A DNA stretch of 64,000 nt from a virus. The notes under the pieces are model-generated. The model worked only from the letters and a program-made list of their open reading frames with translations. It was not told the DNA's origin and searched no databases. The position numbers and the translations under genes are program-made. The stretch spans positions 18,592 through 82,591 of the IMG/VR virus record IMGVR_UViG_3300036832_000548. One strand, given 5' to 3'. Below are positions 43,477 to 56,359 of this stretch, one piece after another; positions within the stretch are counted from its first letter, which is position 1; each line of letters begins with the position of its first letter.

Positions 43477-43494
43477 ATGGGGAGAGAGACGTAT

Positions 43495-43598
43495 CGTCTC
43501 GGCCAAGGCGCTCTTGATACCCATGTCCCGGATGCCGAGACGGGCCGCCATCGGCCACAAGGGGAATGATGCCCACCTGCTTGATGCCGGTGGCGGCC
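43495..43598 (+). ncRNA. Orphan TIGR-like guide doublet (2 dual-spacer stem-loop units)
   Basis: CGTCTCGGC-CA-N9-TGATACCCA-N9-T-GCCGAGACG then GGCCGCCATCGGC-CA-N9-TGATGCCCA-N9-T-GCCGGTGGCGGCC. Confidence 0.8.
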
Positions 43599-43942
43599 AC
43601 CTAAAAGAACGAGCCGACCTCCGGGGCGTTAAGAGGCCGGCTCGTCCTGCTTGGTAACCCGGCTGGTCGAGGGCTGGGCAACCGCGGGGATCATCGCACC
43701 GGCGCGGCTGTGTTGTCTAGGCCTATCCCTGCCGTTGCCGGCCCATCCACAAGAAACAAACGTAGACCCGACATTTGGCCCGACAGAAACTGGAAAGGTT
43801 GGTGTATTCAAGGTGTTGAAGCACCCTATAAGGGCGAAATAGACCATCAATCGCTGCCCATCGCTGCCAAAAGCATTGTGATTGCAATGGGACTTATTAT
43901 CTGGTCTGATGTCAGCAACCACCGACCCGACAAGGACCAGAC

Positions 43943-48427: not shown

Positions 48428-49045
48428 CTATTCGGATGCAGTATTTTTGTCCGTTTTGAGTGGGATCATCGGCGGATCGATATTCTCAAGCGCTTCAGCA
48501 ACAAGCCGGTCGCTCAGGTTCATCCGCGCCGTCAGATCCTTGATCGTATCGGTGACTTGCGTGCCGATCTTCGATGACATCTCGACCTCACGGAACGCCT
48601 CCGCGCCTTTCTGCCGAATGAGCCGCGCGGTATCGATGACTGTCTTGAGCACGGTTTGCGCTTGGTCGTGATACTCGCGGCCCATCTGCTCCAGTGTTTG
48701 CGCGCATTGTTCGTAGCCGATCACGACGGCATGCGCGGCGATGGCGGCACTGCGGGACACGTCAGGCGCGTGCGTAACGTAGTCAGGCAGCGGCCCCAGC
48801 ACCTTAGTGGCATTGTCCTGCCGCTGCTCAGGCGGCGCGTAATCGGCTGGGACCGGGACGTGTGGATCATCGAAGGTTGGACCTTTGATCCGCTCAGTCA
48901 CCATTCTTGGCGCGCGCTTTCCTGCCGCATTGACCTCAGCTTCAAGCGCCGCAGCAACGGCGGCAAACCCTTTCTCTTCCGGCGCTGCGTTCGGCAACAG
49001 TGCTTTCAAAGGGCTCTTCCCACGCACCACTGATGTGTCAGTCAT
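48428..49045 (-). CDS. Hypothetical protein
   Basis: AGGAG RBS; coiled-coil C-terminus. Confidence 0.65.
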   Translation of the reverse strand: MTDTSVVRGKSPLKALLPNAAPEEKGFAAVAAALEAEVNAAGKRAPRMVTERIKGPTFDDPHVPVPADYAPPEQRQDNATKVLGPLPDYVTHAPDVSRSAAIAAHAVVIGYEQCAQTLEQMGREYHDQAQTVLKTVIDTARLIRQKGAEAFREVEMSSKIGTQVTDTIKDLTARMNLSDRLVAEALENIDPPMIPLKTDKNTASE

Positions 49046-49222
49046 TTCGATCTCACTCCTTTGGTTGATCTTTGCAGGTTCCGAGGCGTATCAAGCGACC
49101 CTACCCACCACAGGTCGTCGCGCCGATTGGCTTCCGCCCACACAACGGCATCGTGTTCGCTCTGGAACGGCCCCAGATAGCTGAACCCGTCCTGCGGATT
49201 GCCGATGATAATGATGCAGATC

Positions 49223-50344
49223 TTAGGAACGCCCATCGGTTCCCTCAGGATGCGCTTGCTGCTCGTCCCAGCCTGCGCGCCACTCAAGGGCTTCGCGCGC
49301 CCGTGTTGGATCTCGATACTCGATCGGGGTTGCTTTGCGCTGCATGCCCTTGGCTTGGTCAGCGCGACCGCGTTCGCGCGCAATCACCAGCAAATCTGGG
49401 GCGGTCGCCTGTTGGGGTTCTACTTTCGTTTCGGATTTTGCAGCCGTTTGCTGCGGTTCCTGATTCGTTTCCGTGTTCGAATCATCGGAGTGCTGCTCGC
49501 TTGGCGGCGATTCCGGTTCTGTCAAGTGGTCGACGATGGTTCGGTCAGCGTGGGCTTGGTCGTGCGCTTCCTGCACGGTGTCTGCTGGTGGACCGGCGAA
49601 ATGATCGAGCGTCGCGCCGCGGGCGGTCTCACTGCGAGCGCGGGACTGGGCGGTCGTCTCGCCCTCTTCATCTTCGTACATCTCCTCATCTTTGCGGATC
49701 AGATCATCGAGGTCAGACGACATGGGCAGAAGCCGCGACAGGACCCGGATCGCGGTCTTCATCTCCATTTCTTCCGTCCACATTTTCCAAGGCGCGTCCT
49801 CGCGCGAGGCGCGGCTCATGTTGCGGCGCTTGGCAATCTCACTAGGCGATAGTGGCGCGATAAAAACCCCGCCGTCCTTGGTCCCGGCTGCGGCGTAGAC
49901 AAGACGCTTCTTCTTGTCGGTGTGATCGTCGCCCGGAATATGTTTGAAATGCGGGCCGTTCTCGTCAGTCCAGTGTTCCCAATGGTCGCCATCGTAAACG
50001 ATATCCGTCGTCACCCATTTAAATTGCCCGCTATTGCGGAATTTTTTGAGCAGGCCTTGGTACATCGGCAGGTATTGGACCTTGTTCTTAAATGGCACCA
50101 ACGCGGCCTCGCGACCGTCAGGCAGCAAACCGTCCTGGGCACAACGCAGTGCGGAGTTGAACAGCGAGCCGCGGTCACAGGTGAGCAGGTCGTTATTGAG
50201 CTGCACGGCGGTCAGCACAACGCGGAAGAACCGTTCGGCTGGCATGTGCTTCGGGAGCGCATGTTGAAATTGCACACTGCGATCGTTGAGTTGATCGCGC
50301 AGGACCACCATCGGGTGCGCGGGTTTGTTGGCTTGATCGTTCAT
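49223..50344 (-). CDS. recT: RecT-family single-strand annealing protein
   Basis: ALPKHM..ERF.RV..SL..CAQDGLLPDGREAALVPF..MYQGLLK..PW...EEM..KT.IR.L. Confidence 0.92.
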   Translation of the reverse strand: MNDQANKPAHPMVVLRDQLNDRSVQFQHALPKHMPAERFFRVVLTAVQLNNDLLTCDRGSLFNSALRCAQDGLLPDGREAALVPFKNKVQYLPMYQGLLKKFRNSGQFKWVTTDIVYDGDHWEHWTDENGPHFKHIPGDDHTDKKKRLVYAAAGTKDGGVFIAPLSPSEIAKRRNMSRASREDAPWKMWTEEMEMKTAIRVLSRLLPMSSDLDDLIRKDEEMYEDEEGETTAQSRARSETARGATLDHFAGPPADTVQEAHDQAHADRTIVDHLTEPESPPSEQHSDDSNTETNQEPQQTAAKSETKVEPQQATAPDLLVIARERGRADQAKGMQRKATPIEYRDPTRAREALEWRAGWDEQQAHPEGTDGRS

Positions 50345-50368
50345 TCGTTTTTCTCCTTTTGATTAGGT

Positions 50369-51038
50369 GCCGCCGAGGGCAGTCGAGCGTCGGGCATCAA
50401 GGCCTCGCAGGCCCTCGGCGGCGATCTCGGCACCGATTTCCTGGGCATCATAGGACGTTTGGCCGAGATTTCTTTTTGGTGCCGCCGAGGGCAACTTGAA
50501 CTTGGGCATCATGGGTGACATGGCCCTCGGCGGCTTGCTCGGCGTGCAGTTTTTGGGAACCCACTAATTTCTGGCCAAGCAATTTCTTGGAGTTGGTGCC
50601 GCCGCGGGCAACCCGAAGGGGGGGATCATTCGGGGCATGGCCCGCAGCGGCGGTCTCGGCAGGGGATGCATGGGCATCACGAAGTTCGTGGCCGAGATTT
50701 TTGCGCTTGCGTTTTTTGGGGCCGCCGACGGCGCTTGCGATTTGGGGATCAACCGAGCAATGGCCATCGGCAGCGACCTCGGCACCCATGCCATGGGCAT
50801 CAAGAACTACATGGCCGAGATCATTGGTGCCGCCGAGGGCAGAGGAATCCTGGGCATCATGCGCTGCTTGGCCATCGGCGGCGATCTCGGCAAAGCGTCG
50901 CTGGGCATCATGGATCCGTTGGCCGAGACCATTCGAATAGATGCCGCCGGCATGGCTCCTCTGGGCATCAGCCGCATGCTGGCCGACGGCGATCTCGGCA
51001 GCGCCATTTTGGGCATCATTGCTCATGTGGCCGAGATC
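50369..51038 (-). ncRNA. TIGR-like stem-loop array A (6 doublets, 12 dual-spacer units)
   Basis: Repeated GATCTCGGC-CA-N9-TGATGCCCA-N9-T-GCCGAGATC / GCCGCCGAGGGC-CA-N9-TGATGCCCA-N9-T-GCCCTCGGCGGC with unique spacers. Confidence 0.88.
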
Positions 51039-51974
51039 ATTCGTGGCTTGATCGACCCACTGTTCCCACAGGTCCACCAAGAATTGTTTGAAGGCGATCC
51101 GCAATCCGTCCTGGCGGCGATGACCGGGCGTCCATTCGGGATGCGATATCTCAGTGCGTATTCGGCGCGCGGCATAGACCTCGCCATAGCGTCCGTTGGG
51201 ATGACCTTCATCGGCCCCGGCCTTCGCTGCCGATATCCACTGCTTGTTCACGAGCCACAAGGCGATCGTGTACATCGTGGCGTATCGCTCACCCGAAAAC
51301 GGATTCGCGATCCATTCCTCCTTATCCAACTTACGCGGCCGCCACGTTTCCCGTTTCCAAGTCGATCCGGCGTGGCCATCATACGGTGCAAAGCCGAGAC
51401 GCTTCCAAAGCTTCTCCGGGTTCGCGTAGTTATCGAGCGGGCCCGCCTCCGCAACGATCAGGGCAAGGCCGAGGATGCCCGCGCCGGGGATCGACTCAAC
51501 CCACGGTGCAACGGGCAACTGCGCCGCGAGTTCCTCTATTCCAGCCGTTGAGTCGTCTCGCACTTCATCCATTGGCCCACGCGCGATGTCAGTCTTCTGC
51601 ACAATCGTGAGCAGATCGTGGGGCAAGTCCGTTTGAACAATCTCGCCGCTGCCGTTGGCGGCCTTCTTGTACACCGCGCGCGCCTCCTTGATCATCGCGG
51701 CAACCTTCTTGTTGTATTCCGCGCGAATGGCTTCCGACTCAGTCGGCTTCCAATCTGTAAAGTTGCGCCGGATATAGGACTCAAGAGCGCGGTCGATCTT
51801 TTGTTGAACTTTGATCGCGAACTTGCGCCGTCGCGCCAGCGTCACGATGTTCTTCACCAGCTCGTCGCGAGCACGAATTTGCAGCACCAGCGAAGGCAAG
51901 CCAATGGCGGAATTGCGCGCATCAATCAAAGCTTGAGCGCGGCGAGTGCGGTCGGCATTTGTTTGCTGTGTCAT
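50448..51974 (-). CDS. tasA: IS110/Nop-domain RNA-binding protein without nuclease domain (TasA-like); C-terminal about 195 aa read through array A
   Basis: Coiled coil, then LPVAPWVESIPGAGILGLALIVAEAG..YANPEKLWKRLGFAP..YGEVY..GHRRQDGLRIAFKQFLVDLW; no N-terminal DEDD/RuvC; AAGGGA RBS. Confidence 0.8.
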   Translation of the reverse strand: MTQQTNADRTRRAQALIDARNSAIGLPSLVLQIRARDELVKNIVTLARRRKFAIKVQQKIDRALESYIRRNFTDWKPTESEAIRAEYNKKVAAMIKEARAVYKKAANGSGEIVQTDLPHDLLTIVQKTDIARGPMDEVRDDSTAGIEELAAQLPVAPWVESIPGAGILGLALIVAEAGPLDNYANPEKLWKRLGFAPYDGHAGSTWKRETWRPRKLDKEEWIANPFSGERYATMYTIALWLVNKQWISAAKAGADEGHPNGRYGEVYAARRIRTEISHPEWTPGHRRQDGLRIAFKQFLVDLWEQWVDQATNDLGHMSNDAQNGAAEIAVGQHAADAQRSHAGGIYSNGLGQRIHDAQRRFAEIAADGQAAHDAQDSSALGGTNDLGHVVLDAHGMGAEVAADGHCSVDPQIASAVGGPKKRKRKNLGHELRDAHASPAETAAAGHAPNDPPLRVARGGTNSKKLLGQKLVGSQKLHAEQAAEGHVTHDAQVQVALGGTKKKSRPNVL

Positions 51975-51998
51975 ATTGTGTGTCCCTTGTTGTTAGGT

Positions 51999-52100
51999 GC
52001 CGCCGAGGACATTCGACGTATGGGTATCACCCGAGCAACGGCCCTCGGCGGCGATCTCGGCGATCATACAATGGGCATCACTGGGGCTGTAGCCGAGATC
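51999..52100 (-). ncRNA. TIGR-like array B (1 doublet)
   Basis: Same repeat architecture, intergenic upstream of tas. Confidence 0.85.
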
Positions 52101-52102
52101 AT

Positions 52103-52795
52103 TTAGTGTCCTTCGATATACTTTTGCAGGCTCGCCACCGTCGCAACGACTGCGGTGTTCAACGCAGCCGGGGCTTGCTCGCGAGCTTCCCGATCAAACT
52201 GCTCGAGCACATTTGCTGGGACGATATCGCGGACCCGCGCATCCGTATTTGGCACGCGCGCGTAGCTGCGGATCTTGCACATGAGCAGCGTGTCGGCAGT
52301 CTCCTGCAGTGTGCTCAACACGGTCGAACCGACGACCGCAATGCGCTCCTCAATCGCGGCGTCCAGCTCCCGCCAGTGCAGGTCGCCAACCGGCGCGCCG
52401 TTGATCCTGCGGCGGTCATAGATGAGGCCAACGCTGCGCATCATCGCGGTTCGGTTGATCGCCTTGTCGCGGGCTGTGGGTGATTTGGTGCCGCCGCTGG
52501 CGTTTCTGCTTTGGGCATCAAGTCCACGCTGGCCAGCGGCAGCGGTCTTGGCACGCAGCGTGTGGGCATCAGCATGTACGCGGCCAAGATCATTCGAAAT
52601 GCGTTTGAGATAATCCAGCGCGAGCCCGCCGAGTAATTCCGGGCGGCGTTGAATTTTCTTGACGAAGCCGGTCAAGACTTTCGTCGGGTCGTTTTTGTTG
52701 TCATTCAACAAATTGACGGCAGCGACCCGCAGCTCGTTAGCGACGGTGTCGAGGCCGGCTTTCTTCAGAGCAGCTCCGATAGATGTGTCAGTCAT
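52103..52795 (-). CDS. Hypothetical helical protein containing an in-frame guide doublet
   Basis: GGAG RBS before ATG 52795; open across array C. Confidence 0.7.
   Translation of the reverse strand: MTDTSIGAALKKAGLDTVANELRVAAVNLLNDNKNDPTKVLTGFVKKIQRRPELLGGLALDYLKRISNDLGRVHADAHTLRAKTAAAGQRGLDAQSRNASGGTKSPTARDKAINRTAMMRSVGLIYDRRRINGAPVGDLHWRELDAAIEERIAVVGSTVLSTLQETADTLLMCKIRSYARVPNTDARVRDIVPANVLEQFDREAREQAPAALNTAVVATVASLQKYIEGH
52490..52591 (-). ncRNA. TIGR-like array C (1 intragenic doublet)
   Basis: Same architecture with compensatory stem changes. Confidence 0.8.
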
Positions 52796-52818
52796 TTTGT
52801 GTTCTCCGTTCAAAAGGT

Positions 52819-53033
52819 GCCGCTGAGGGCACCAGTCCCGTAGGCATCAACAAACAGATGGCCCGCAGCGGCGATCTCGGCAAAACTTGGTTGGGCATCA
52901 TGGATGCGATAGCCGAGATCATTTGTGTGGGTGCCGCCGAGGGCATTGCGTCGTTGGGCATCAGGCGTTCCTGGGCCCCCGGCGGCGGTCTCGGCACCGA
53001 TCCTCTGGGCATCAACGCGCGGATGGCCGAGAT
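52819..53033 (-). ncRNA. TIGR-like array D (2 doublets)
   Basis: Same repeat architecture. Confidence 0.87.
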
Positions 53034-53038
53034 TTGTG

Positions 53039-53734
53039 TCATATCGTTACCCTGAAGATTTCGCTGAATGGCGGGCGGTGCGCCGCGTCAGATAGCTCGT
53101 TGCTGACGACTAGCACGCGATATCGAAAGCCGCGGCTTTGATTGATTACGCTGGTTCGCGCGAGATAGTTTTTCTGGAGCTGTTGCAGCCAAAAACTGGC
53201 GTGTTGCAGTTCCCCGTAAATCTTCTGCCGTCGGGCTGCATGATTGATCCGACGAAGAACGGACCCCTCATTGAACACAACGATGAAATCGCTGGCTGCA
53301 ACGTCGCGCGCCACGATCCGCATCGCGCCAACGCCATGCCCGGTGTAGCCGCAGGGATCTGATAGCCATAGGACGTAATCGTACCCACCGGCGCGTACGA
53401 CATCGACGACATCGGAATGCGTCTCGGCAATGAGGGCACTCGGAAACCGTTTGCGCAGCAAAAGCCGTTGCCTCCGACTCGCATCGCACAGGCAAACGTC
53501 CGCGCTCACGGCGAAGGCGATGTTGGTGACAATCTGCGGCGTTGGCGTCGACACAACGCCGTCATGCAAAACGCCGATACCATCACCAGCATTGGCATCG
53601 ATCAAAAGAAGTTTGTCGTGCAGATGAGCGGTCCTGACTTGCGCTTCAACGATCTTGCTCAACAACGAGTGTTTGATCCACGACCCCTCGCTGCGGCCCG
53701 CATTAGCGCGTTCGTTGGTCGAGGCGTGGGTCAT
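53039..53734 (-). CDS. SAM-dependent methyltransferase-fold protein (TcmP/GMT-like)
   Basis: SWIKHSLL..LIDANAGDG..LSDPCG, similar to the KH/IDxxAGxG/DPxG motifs of TcmP-like proteins. Confidence 0.55.
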   Translation of the reverse strand: MTHASTNERANAGRSEGSWIKHSLLSKIVEAQVRTAHLHDKLLLIDANAGDGIGVLHDGVVSTPTPQIVTNIAFAVSADVCLCDASRRQRLLLRKRFPSALIAETHSDVVDVVRAGGYDYVLWLSDPCGYTGHGVGAMRIVARDVAASDFIVVFNEGSVLRRINHAARRQKIYGELQHASFWLQQLQKNYLARTSVINQSRGFRYRVLVVSNELSDAAHRPPFSEIFRVTI

Positions 53735-53743
53735 CGTGTAGGT

Positions 53744-54406
53744 GCCGCCGCAGGCAGAGGCCGAGTGGGCATCATCGTCGTTGTGGCCCGCGGCGGCGAT
53801 CTCGGCGTTCCGCGTTTGGGCATCAAGCGATCGTTGGCCGAGAATTGTTGAAAGGCTGCCGCCGAGGGCATGACGATTTTGGGCATCAACGAACGACTGG
53901 CCATCGGCGGCGATCTCGGCAAGCGCCTTCTGGGCATCATCTGGCCTGTGGCCGAGATCATTCGAATGGGGGCCGCCGAGGGCAAGCACAGGATGGGCAT
54001 CACGGGTCGCGTGGCCCCCGACGGCGATCTCGGCACCCGAGTCATGGGCATCAAGTGGTCATGGGCCGAGATTATAGGTGCCGCCGAGGGCAACGATCCA
54101 TTGGGCATCACGCTGGCAACGGCCCTCGGCGGCGATCTCGGCATTCCATCATTGGACAGCAAGTCGTCGTTGGCCGAGAAGATTTTAGGTGCCGCCGAGG
54201 GCGCACCTCCCATGGGCATCAAGGACGGCGTGGCCCGCGGCGGCGATCTCGGCAACGGGTGGCTGGGCATCAGCCGTCTACTGGCCGAGATCATTCTGAT
54301 AGATGCCGCCGAGGGCATGAGCTGCTTGGGCATCAGCCAGCTTCTGGTCCTCGACGGCGATCTCGGCAGAGCTCGTATGGGCATCACTGGTGGATTGGCC
54401 GAGATC
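53744..54406 (-). ncRNA. TIGR-like array E (6 doublets, 12 units)
   Basis: Same repeat architecture; starts at the stop codon of the YqaJ gene. Confidence 0.9.
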
Positions 54407-55325
54407 ATTTGGTTGCTTCTTTACGTTCGTGAATTCGGAGAACGCGGACCTCGCGTGGGAGGACCGTATAGCCGGAAAAATTCGAGGTTTTGTAGGTGAC
54501 TTTCCATCCGTTAACGCCGGAGACTTGGGCCGCGTCACCCAATTTGTATTTTATCTGAGCCTCGATCTCGTCTTTGCGTTGGTCGAGCGAAGCGATCCGT
54601 TGCATCAGGGCGGCGCGTTCCGCGAGGATTTCCGGCAGCTCGTTGTCGCCAGACATGTCGACCATCTTATCGGTGGCTTCGCGTGGACTGATCAACTTGA
54701 TCAGCTCAGCATCCTTGCCGAAATCGGGCGCCGGCTCGTGACCGATCCGCATTAGCTCCCAAAAATTCTGGGCGGCTGTCTTGATCCGCTCCTCGGCACC
54801 GGCGTGGCGTGGCAATTCCCTGATGCAGACATCGAGATCATAGTTGTAAACCACGGCGGCCACCCCGAAGGCGGCGTCGGCCAGCAGCATCTCGGTGAGC
54901 AGCTGCAGCTCGATCCACAATGGGGTGATATTTCCGTTGTCCCAATCGCGCTCAAAGATGTGCGGATAGGCGGTTTTAGTTTGCAGGATGCCGAGGCCGC
55001 GCGGATCGCCGTGGATAAAGAAATCTGGCGTAGCGCCCAACTGCAGCTCAGGGGCACGGAAATATGTCTGGCATTTCTCAATGATCCAATCGTCGTGTTC
55101 CTCTCCGACACGCTGGGCAACGACGTTTTCGAGCAGGCGCCCGCGGCGGATCGGTTTCGTTTCCTCGAATTCGAACTCCATCCCATTGTGCTGATAGTAA
55201 AGCTTGAGCGCGGTGACATACGGGTGCAGGCCGAACAGCGCCGCCACCACGGAGGCGGTGATGTCCGGCTTGCGCAGCTCCAGCCACTGCGGGCGACTCA
55301 GGATTGGGATGCGTTCGACGATCAT
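54405..55325 (-). CDS. YqaJ/lambda-exonuclease family protein
   Basis: WLELRKPDITAS..RGRLLE..GATPDF..LQTKT..QL. Confidence 0.9.
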   Translation of the reverse strand: MIVERIPILSRPQWLELRKPDITASVVAALFGLHPYVTALKLYYQHNGMEFEFEETKPIRRGRLLENVVAQRVGEEHDDWIIEKCQTYFRAPELQLGATPDFFIHGDPRGLGILQTKTAYPHIFERDWDNGNITPLWIELQLLTEMLLADAAFGVAAVVYNYDLDVCIRELPRHAGAEERIKTAAQNFWELMRIGHEPAPDFGKDAELIKLISPREATDKMVDMSGDNELPEILAERAALMQRIASLDQRKDEIEAQIKYKLGDAAQVSGVNGWKVTYKTSNFSGYTVLPREVRVLRIHERKEATK

Positions 55326-55372
55326 GGGTGTTCCGAATCGAATAGGGCAATCTTGCCTCTGAGCCGCGCGGC

Positions 55373-55389
55373 GTCAACAAGGAGTTGAC
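55373..55389. promoter_or_regulatory. Palindromic operator-like site in the divergent early control region
   Basis: GTCAAC-AAGGA-GTTGAC; contains TTGAC -35-like hexamers on both strands; another TTGACA at about 55432. Confidence 0.5.
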
Positions 55390-55493
55390 TCTTTCCCCGC
55401 TGTCCTTTCTCCGGGGGTGGCAACCCTAGTTTGACAACGTTAGGGCTACTCGGTTAATTTTTTCTTGCTTGGTAACCCTTGGTCGATATTCAC

Positions 55494-55763
55494 ATGGCAA
55501 AAGAGAGACTTGACGCAGCCATTCTGGCGCTGCGGGAAGAGAATTGGCTACCTAGAATCGCGCAGCGACTCAATTTGACCCGGCAGGCGACCTCGAAATG
55601 GCGCCGCGTTCCGGCAGATCGTGTGCGCGAGGTCGCCAAGATCACGGATTATCCCCTGGCATTTTTACGTCCTGATCTTTACGAGGACATGCCATCCAAG
55701 CCGCCCAAGCTGGCGAAGCCGAAAGCTCGCCGCCGCAATCATCGTGCTGTTGCGCATGCTTGA
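55494..55763 (+). CDS. Cro/YdaS-like HTH regulator
   Basis: IAQRLNLTRQATSKWRRVPADRV..LRPDLY. Confidence 0.85.
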   Translation: MAKERLDAAILALREENWLPRIAQRLNLTRQATSKWRRVPADRVREVAKITDYPLAFLRPDLYEDMPSKPPKLAKPKARRRNHRAVAHA

Positions 55764-56359
55764 GGGGTATTATGGGCCAGCCATTCGACGGTCTTCCGCG
55801 CGCCCATTTCCGCGCAATCCTGGCTGACCCGCCGTGGAACTTTGAGACCTATAGCGAGGCTGGTCGCGATCGTTCTCCCAATTATCCGCTGATGACGGCG
55901 CAGGGCTTGCGCGATCTGCCGGTCAAAGACCTCGCGGCGCCTGATTGCGTGCTGTTCATGTGGGTTACATGGCCAATGCTCGAGCAATCGCTGGCGCTGA
56001 TTCGCGCGTGGGGGTTCACCTACAAGACGTGCGGGTTTGACTGGATGAAGGCGCACGCGGGCCAGATCGATATGTTCCGCGACGACGCGGATGGCCAGGT
56101 TGGGCTTGGCTACTGGACGCGCAGCAACAGCGAGCCGTGCCTGTTGGCAACGCGCGGCAAGCCCAGACGGGTCAACGCTGATGTCCGCATGGGCATCATC
56201 GAGCCGCGGCGCGAGCACAGCCGCAAGCCTTATTGCATCTATGACCGCATCGAGCGGCTCGTCCAAGGACCATATATTGAATTATTTGCTCGCTGGCAGC
56301 GTCCGGGCTGGACCGCTTGGGGCAATGAGACTGACCGATTCAAGGAGGCTGCGGAGTGA
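55760..56359 (+). CDS. MT-A70 family adenine methyltransferase
   Basis: ILADPPW; LFMWVT; AWGFTYKT; GLGYWTRSNSEPCL; REHSRKP; IELFAR. Confidence 0.92.
   Translation: MRGIMGQPFDGLPRAHFRAILADPPWNFETYSEAGRDRSPNYPLMTAQGLRDLPVKDLAAPDCVLFMWVTWPMLEQSLALIRAWGFTYKTCGFDWMKAHAGQIDMFRDDADGQVGLGYWTRSNSEPCLLATRGKPRRVNADVRMGIIEPRREHSRKPYCIYDRIERLVQGPYIELFARWQRPGWTAWGNETDRFKEAAE

Follow-up and report, generated by a model that had tools for sequence, protein, structure and literature searches.

We describe a pair of guide RNA units that lies, in frame, inside the gene directly upstream of tas in a soil phage. The 102-nt segment in question (52490–52591, minus strand) is probably a genuine tigRNA gene pair of the phage's apparently nuclease-less TasA system, nested in the linker of a companion protein; we put the probability of this reading at roughly 0.6. 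The case for it is built on unit-family membership, stem covariation, a two-domain host gene, linker disorder, synteny with tasA and recurrence in relatives. Two things appear to be new here: guide units are hosted by a gene that is not tas itself, and the host gene belongs to a previously unrecognised family of companion proteins.

The window (i.e. the whole 64,000-nt stretch of DNA analysed) is part of the complete 82.6-kb IMG/VR virus record IMGVR_UViG_3300036832_000548. The units lie in a densely packed minus-strand block bounded by a YqaJ-type exonuclease gene and a RecT gene. Its features are as follows, where R1 is a covariance model of the doublets and P0002 the closest orthologue of the companion protein, both treated below.

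54405–55325, minus strand: YqaJ-type exonuclease gene, flanking the block
53740–54412, minus strand: array between the exonuclease gene and the 231-aa gene
53039–53734, minus strand: 231-aa gene, between arrays
52815–53040, minus strand: two canonical doublets, directly upstream of the companion gene (R1, 106.2 and 98.2 bits)
52804–52807, minus strand: GGAG ribosome-binding site, 8 nt ahead of the ATG at 52795 (read from the sequence)
52103–52795, minus strand: companion gene of tasA (P0001, 230 aa), with N-terminal helical domain, linker and C-terminal helical domain (ORF, translation, homologues)
52598–52795, minus strand: N-terminal domain, aa 1–66, four helices (AlphaFold2 pLDDT about 90; 85% identity to P0002)
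52484–52597, minus strand: inter-domain linker, aa 67–104, encoded by the guide doublet (pLDDT 47–64; 42% identity to P0002)
52544–52591, minus strand: TIGR unit 1, stem GATCT(C>T)GGC / GCC(G>A)AGACC, with CCG as box C, both spacers 9 nt long and UG as box D
52493–52540, minus strand: TIGR unit 2, 12-bp stem including two compensated pairs, with CCA as box C, both spacers 9 nt long and CG as the second box D
52103–52483, minus strand: C-terminal domain, aa 105–230, plus stop codon (helices 108–229; 83% identity to P0002)
51995–52106, minus strand: canonical doublet, filling the gap from the companion stop codon to the tas start (R1, 105.7 bits)
51045–51974, minus strand: tasA-like core (NF052498, PF02371); the ORF continues through arrays to 50448
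49223–50344, minus strand: RecT gene, flanking the block

At the thresholds applied, the product of the 231-aa gene had no match in Pfam, PHROGs, NCBIfam or PADLOC. The tas gene starts 129 nt downstream of the companion gene. Its core matches NCBIfam model NF052498 (TIGR_Tas_endo) with an E value of 1.8e-12 and 47.7 bits, under the curated cut-off of 100, and weakly matches PF02371, the IS110 C-terminal domain (E = 0.0013). Only matches of the Nop/IS110-C type were found, with the N-terminal 130 residues outside the model, and 142 homologues were recovered. Past the Nop-like domain, the tas frame stays open and runs on through about 5.5 doublets with Lys-rich joints (50448–51044); three Tas relatives (P0120, P0121 and P0124) read through into doublets in the same way.

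Units in this locus are paired, with two alternating stem types, and the general minus-strand unit reads stem / CCA / 9 nt / UG-AUG-CCCA / 9 nt / UG / stem. The intragenic doublet comprises two complete stem-loop TIGR units of the form stem / CCx / 9 nt / TGATGCCCA / 9 nt / YG / stem, a layout shared with all 28 remaining units there. Copies of the loop octamer number 29 in the window, where 4.3 would be expected, and none of 100 shuffles reaches that count; both intragenic loops match the octamer exactly. We built R1 from 15 other minus-strand doublets, leaving the intragenic one out. The model nevertheless finds it at 52486–52597 on the minus strand, with 91.8 bits and an E value of 1.5e-17. 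The training doublets score 89.0–107.7 bits for the 13 of 15 that are among the matches listed (54076–54187 and 50717–50828 are not among them), and the intragenic doublet exceeds two of those 13. A lone plus-strand doublet about 7 kb away (43489–43601) scores 83.0 bits; the next match in the window reaches 21.7 bits.

The stems of the intragenic copy have diverged from those of its neighbours yet still pair, as the sequence-only reading of this DNA had proposed. Pairing is kept at 8 of 9 positions in unit 1 and at all 12 in unit 2. Relative to the consensus there are six stem substitutions, with 20 of 21 pairs intact, and three compensated pairs are unique to this copy. The compensated U-A pair of unit 1 occurs in 1 of 17 doublets (C-G in 15 of them), and unit 2 has C-G and U-A at its two variable pairs. 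When all 17 doublets are aligned on a two-hairpin structure, pairing holds in 94.9% of cells, and at eight pairs both partners vary. None of 500 shuffles reaches any of five covariation measures, and slid partners pair in only 35–55% of cells. The minimum-free-energy fold of the doublet RNA consists of two adjacent hairpins (−46.5 kcal/mol, z = −2.38). On the R1 score, layout and stem covariation, the doublet is a genuine member of the locus unit family.

Boxes C and D, as defined by Faure et al. 2025 (PMC12045711), deviate once each. Box C is CCA at three of four spacers and CCG at spacer A of unit 1; variants (CCT, CCG, CTA, CCC) occur in 6 of the 28 other units. Box D is UG at three of four spacers and CG at spacer B of unit 2, a variant found in 4 of the 28. 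The spacers are 9 + 9 nt in both units (criterion, 8–12 nt), and all four are unique within the locus. A 151-nt contig from a second soil-metagenome study covers 52453–52603 with 0 differences, and the two studies may share one sampling campaign. In a search of sequencing runs, none of RNA contained the stretch, and the two runs compared with it proved to be DNA contigs. We also looked for self-targets in the 82.6-kb phage genome, taken as adjacent matches to spacer A and to spacer B in reverse complement, in either order, separated by 0–3 nt and allowing up to three mismatches. There were 33 matches, compared with 9–38 in 20 shuffles, and one with two or fewer mismatches, compared with 0–6; hence no signal was seen.

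Two other units of the locus, at 54134–54181 and 50537–50588, have degenerate loops (TGCTGTCC and GGGTTCCC), and in the second the stems are altered on both sides with pairing kept. Across 50365–54412, the distance from one loop to the next is divisible by 3 in 26 of 27 cases. For the distances between doublets the count is 10 of 11 (57, 60, 63, 66 and 72; the exception is 61). In related loci this spacing varies by lineage (L005, 25/25; L014, 15/16; L010, 0/10), with 106 of 175 overall. Stop codons in the spacers of the 30 units are not significantly depleted, either in the frame used (2, versus 4.05 expected from shuffled spacers, P = 0.21) or in the other open frame (3 versus 3.45).

The host ORF (52103–52795, minus strand) runs from the ATG at 52795 through the doublet without a stop and encodes 230 residues; residues 68–103 are the string quoted in the sequence-only reading. 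A profile search of 1.84 billion representatives gave 115 homologues at E ≤ 0.001 and 40 at E ≤ 1e-10, most of them 200–260 residues long. With separate HMMs for residues 1–66 and 108–230, both domains were found in one chain in 91 of 118 sequences, the remainder being short pieces or ORFs that read through arrays. GC content at codon positions 1, 2 and 3 is 0.58, 0.36 and 0.67 in the N-domain and 0.66, 0.47 and 0.76 in the C-domain, compared to 0.71, 0.61 and 0.55 in the insert and 0.74, 0.48 and 0.60 in the translated array of the tas tail. In this respect, the domains resemble neighbouring genes and the insert resembles translated array.

AlphaFold2 predicts helices at residues 5–83 and 108–229 of P0001, with pLDDT below 50 at 78–100. 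Since this low-confidence stretch falls between the two helical domains, the model indicates that the doublet encodes a floppy linker. The suggestion that the doublet sits in frame in mid-gene, between helical regions, is thus borne out by the ORF with its homologues, and the structure prediction, asked whether the insert is a loop, returned a low-confidence stretch between helices. The identity of the family is another matter. P0001 matched nothing in Pfam, PHROGs, NCBIfam or PADLOC, showed no Tas, IS110 or Nop similarity in the first three of these, and had no tblastn match in the phages collection, no Foldseek match in the PDB at E ≤ 0.001 and no usable match in the ESM Atlas. A wide VIA-align search gave best Z scores of 7.1 (whole model) and 5.4 (N-domain alone), both within the range of common helical arrangements. 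The only hit of a PDB sequence profile, an archaeal transcription factor (E = 0.0067), is a lead rather than a finding.

The companion gene accompanies tas closely. Of 18 Tas-seeded IMG/VR loci, all 18 have an ORF carrying both family domains immediately ahead of tas and in the same orientation, and the C-domain HMM matches in every one. Gaps between the two genes range from −57 to 580 nt and hold 0–10 units. Among GTDB genomes there was a single match, on a contig of a Xanthobacteraceae metagenome-assembled genome (MAG; locus L030), with the same gene order; this locus hints at the host group. Starting from the family instead, tas was directly downstream of the companion gene in 9 of 9 loci. 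Eight of these are contigs already found via Tas; the ninth is L029, a locus truncated at its start, in which tas follows the family gene at a distance of 60 nt. In addition, five family proteins are linked to five Tas proteins through contigs that they presumably share. As every locus was reached via conserved Tas or family motifs, the synteny statement is one about this clade. Within it, the description of the host gene as unrelated does not hold, since the gene is conserved directly upstream of tasA in every readable locus. The host protein, suggested as a candidate Tas partner, has strict synteny with tas in its favour (18/18 IMG/VR loci, the MAG locus and 9/9 family-seeded loci).

We then asked how units are distributed, with a scanner independent of R1 that requires box C, a 9-nt spacer and box D, then the loop, then a further set of box C, spacer and box D, flanked by at least five consecutive pairs or 7 of 8 flanking pairs. 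In the window, the scanner finds 30 units on the minus strand and two on the plus strand, the latter being the orphan doublet. Across the 18 loci, there are 262 units on the tas strand and three on the opposite strand; 0 of the 262 lie inside the tas core. Among the 20 loci whose family gene is complete, 8 have linker units verified in DNA; with the pairs L015/L016 and L010/L012 each counted once, the figure is 7 of 18. The window, L015, its identical twin L016 and L020 have two each, L011, L017 and L018 have one each, and L030 has three. In L015, the intragenic doublet is the best R1 match of its locus (57.7 bits) and has stem sequences of its own. The three complete units of L030 lie at 1682–1831, in a locus that has 20 units in 4.6 kb.

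The reading frame, assigned by hand, is identical in every intragenic case, with box C read as xxC CAx. A matching peptide motif occurs in the linkers of 27 of 91 homologues (41 copies in 5,897 residues), compared to one copy in 15,108 residues inside the domains; over 1000 shuffles of the linkers, the number of members with the motif averaged 1.16 and never exceeded 5. One protein, P0033, has four copies, seen at the protein level only, as in the other motif-only cases. Unit number in the linker therefore ranges from 0 to 4 across the family, and what had been taken for a single insertion is a recurrent family trait. In 12 of 20 loci the linker is without any unit, and 64 of 91 members are without the motif. 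A tree of the domain parts (19 rows, poorly resolved) calls for at least three changes of state, of which the starred branches force only one. Either old inheritance with losses or repeated gain is possible.

Some ORFs outside this set also run into units. P0108 (344 aa, known as protein only) has a full YqaJ domain at 7–137, two array-type doublets at about 155–232 and 110 further residues; possibly it is another non-tas gene with nested units, or else a read-through into the next gene. In P0008, P0080 and P0114, a shared N-terminal protein without a Pfam name continues in frame into 4–9 doublets, and in P0008 the frame goes on into a companion-family protein. These ORFs suggest that, in other loci too, a gene is followed by an array and then by the companion gene.

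The closest orthologue allows a finer comparison. P0002 (230 aa) is 77% identical to P0001 in a gapless, colinear alignment; the N- and C-domains are 85% and 83% identical, the insert 42%. By hand count on the alignment, 12 of 14 spacer-encoded residues have changed, versus 4 of 14 stem-encoded ones. Ala replaces Asp in both loops, which means that at least one loop base has changed per unit, right after box D; such a change is compatible with intact boxes C and D. Judged from the protein alone, as are all base changes in the loops and stems of P0002, the linker loops may have the candidate form UGCUGCCCA. The Tas ORF of the same phage (P0120, presumed to be on the same 58,751-nt contig) has arrays that still read DAH/DAQ. 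Because the loop Asp residues are lost in the linker while the phage's own arrays keep them, the doublet may be dispensable or decaying in the P0002 lineage. No loci related to P0002 were found in viral or metagenome contigs, none related to P0003 in viral contigs, and none with alignment A4 in metagenome contigs.

Could the doublet be something other than a working guide pair? One alternative is a tolerated relic: an array unit that entered the linker, or reached it by inheritance, no longer serves as a guide and is kept only since a disordered linker accepts nearly any stop-free sequence. The changed loops of P0002 fit this, set against the intact arrays of its phage, as do the 12 of 20 loci without linker units, the at least three state changes on the tree, degenerate linker remnants (e.g. 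in P0005 and L011), and the single deviations in box C and box D. A random doublet would also often be stop-free in the frame used, given that shuffled spacers of 30 units contain just 4.05 stops. A relic is, however, hard to square with 20 of 21 pairs surviving six stem substitutions, two exact octamer loops, and an R1 score in the canonical range, above two training members among the matches listed. It is likewise at odds with L015, where the intragenic doublet is the top doublet of its locus. We take this alternative seriously and consider it unlikely on balance.

The other two alternatives concern the peptide and the gene model. Selection might have acted on the peptide, a Gly/Ala/Gln/Asp-rich stretch kept as a linker or as a TasA-contacting element, with the RNA fold incidental. 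In its favour, one reading frame serves in every intragenic case seen, and Tas ORFs read arrays in that frame as well. The other data speak against it: compensated stem changes alter amino acids, spacer-encoded residues have turned over almost completely between P0001 and P0002, GC by codon position in the insert is array-like, linker pLDDT is under 50, and the motif is absent from 64 of 91 family members. We regard peptide selection as very improbable. Finally, the ORF might be an annotation artefact, with two small genes flanking an intergenic doublet, or no gene at all. Any unit is open in two of three frames, long chance ORFs are common in the GC-rich DNA of the window, and 27 of the 118 sequences have only one domain. 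Yet 52795 to 52103 is stop-free from its ATG, GGAG stands 8 nt before that ATG, the domains are 83–85% identical to P0002 and have gene-like GC3, and 91 sequences, every one of the 18 IMG/VR loci and L030 have both domains in a single chain. On this family evidence, the two-gene and no-gene readings of 52103–52795 were rejected, and an artefact is scarcely credible.

Eukaryotic box C/D snoRNAs, which act as guides with Nop-domain proteins, are hosted in introns and processed out of the transcript of a protein-coding host gene, and they are never translated. The phage doublet was initially likened to such hosting. The likeness stands as an analogy, in that a guide RNA of a Nop-domain protein is nested in a protein-coding host transcript, and any release by processing is part of that analogy. 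It fails at the intron: here the guide is itself coding sequence, in a continuous ORF of a phage without introns.

Closer parallels are found among TIGR-Tas systems. Faure et al. 2025 (PMC12045711) describe stem-loop arrays with TasA, as well as an accessory gene, tasParB. The units described here resemble the stem-loop arrays of nuclease-less TasA in their two 9-nt spacers flanked by box C CCA and box D UG, their variable palindromic stems, their sub-arrays scattered around tas and their carriage by a phage. They differ in that one doublet is translated within another protein and that the stems alternate between two conserved types. Like tasParB, the companion is a conserved non-Tas gene in a tasA operon, with arrays upstream, downstream and between. 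However, the arrays that accompany tasParB are dual-repeat arrays, the parts of that paper considered here mention no units within tasParB itself, and no match to a ParB domain was found for P0001 in Pfam, PHROGs, NCBIfam, PADLOC or fold searches (the tasParB paper itself used HHpred). In the literature examined, in part, no accessory gene is described for stem-loop TasA systems.

A preprint by Xu et al. 2026 (10.64898/2026.09.09.750476) provides the nearest precedent. According to the parts of it considered here, stem-loop units occur inside the tas coding sequence, in disordered regions and with the frame unbroken; the embedded units of BlTasA (wedge loop) are processed; TasA is an RNA-guided transcription repressor; and a link between guide maturation and translation is proposed. 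In those parts, the host of intragenic units is always tas. The present units are like the intragenic tigRNAs of BlTasA in lying in frame, in a disordered stretch between secondary-structure elements. They are unlike them in that the host is the gene before tas, with 0 to 4 units in its linker, and that 0 of 262 scanned units fall in the tas core of the 18 related loci. We found no description of units hosted outside tas in the parts of the literature considered; the supplements of Faure et al. and Xu et al., and TIGRSafari, may list this clade or units in neighbouring genes.

If the doublet is a genuine guide pair, as we favour, the locus could work as follows. A minus-strand early operon would yield one RNA carrying the exonuclease gene, array, 231-aa gene, two doublets, companion gene, doublet, tasA, array and recT. 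We saw no promoter-like site and no minus-strand terminator-like site in 49000–56000, which weakly favours co-transcription. A host RNase would excise each hairpin unit on this RNA, including the two in the companion ORF, for loading onto a dimer of TasA. Through its pair of 9-nt spacers, each unit would then direct binding to both strands of a DNA target, leading to repression rather than cleavage. Nesting would be tolerated because a unit occupies 51 nt, or 17 codons, because the TGA of the loop is met in only one of three frames, and because the frame used gives a Gly/Ala/Gln/Asp-rich peptide suited to a floppy linker. A single transcript could be either translated into full companion protein or cut into guides, so guide output from the doublet would cost companion mRNA. 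Ribosome passage over the hairpins could, in turn, hinder their folding or processing. Co-transcription, processing, loading, repression and this trade-off between translation and processing are steps that we infer.

A bolder extension, which we hold to be rather doubtful, is that the companion is a working part of the TasA system (e.g. in guide processing, loading or target handling), that the linker units provide feedback, and that TIGR units are frame-tolerant modules for the linker of any operon gene. If this is true, each excision of the doublet as tigRNAs would destroy one companion mRNA, and guide and companion supply would set each other. Stem-loop TIGR units would then be codon-sized modules able to settle in the linker of any gene of the operon.

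TIGR-Tas is a young field. The units in frame inside the companion gene mean that guide RNAs can nest in a coding gene other than tas, and thus that array finders will overlook them if coding sequence is masked or the search is confined to the surroundings of tas. The work also adds a protein family strictly linked to one TasA clade, and the locus offers a compact natural test case for translation versus guide processing on one RNA.
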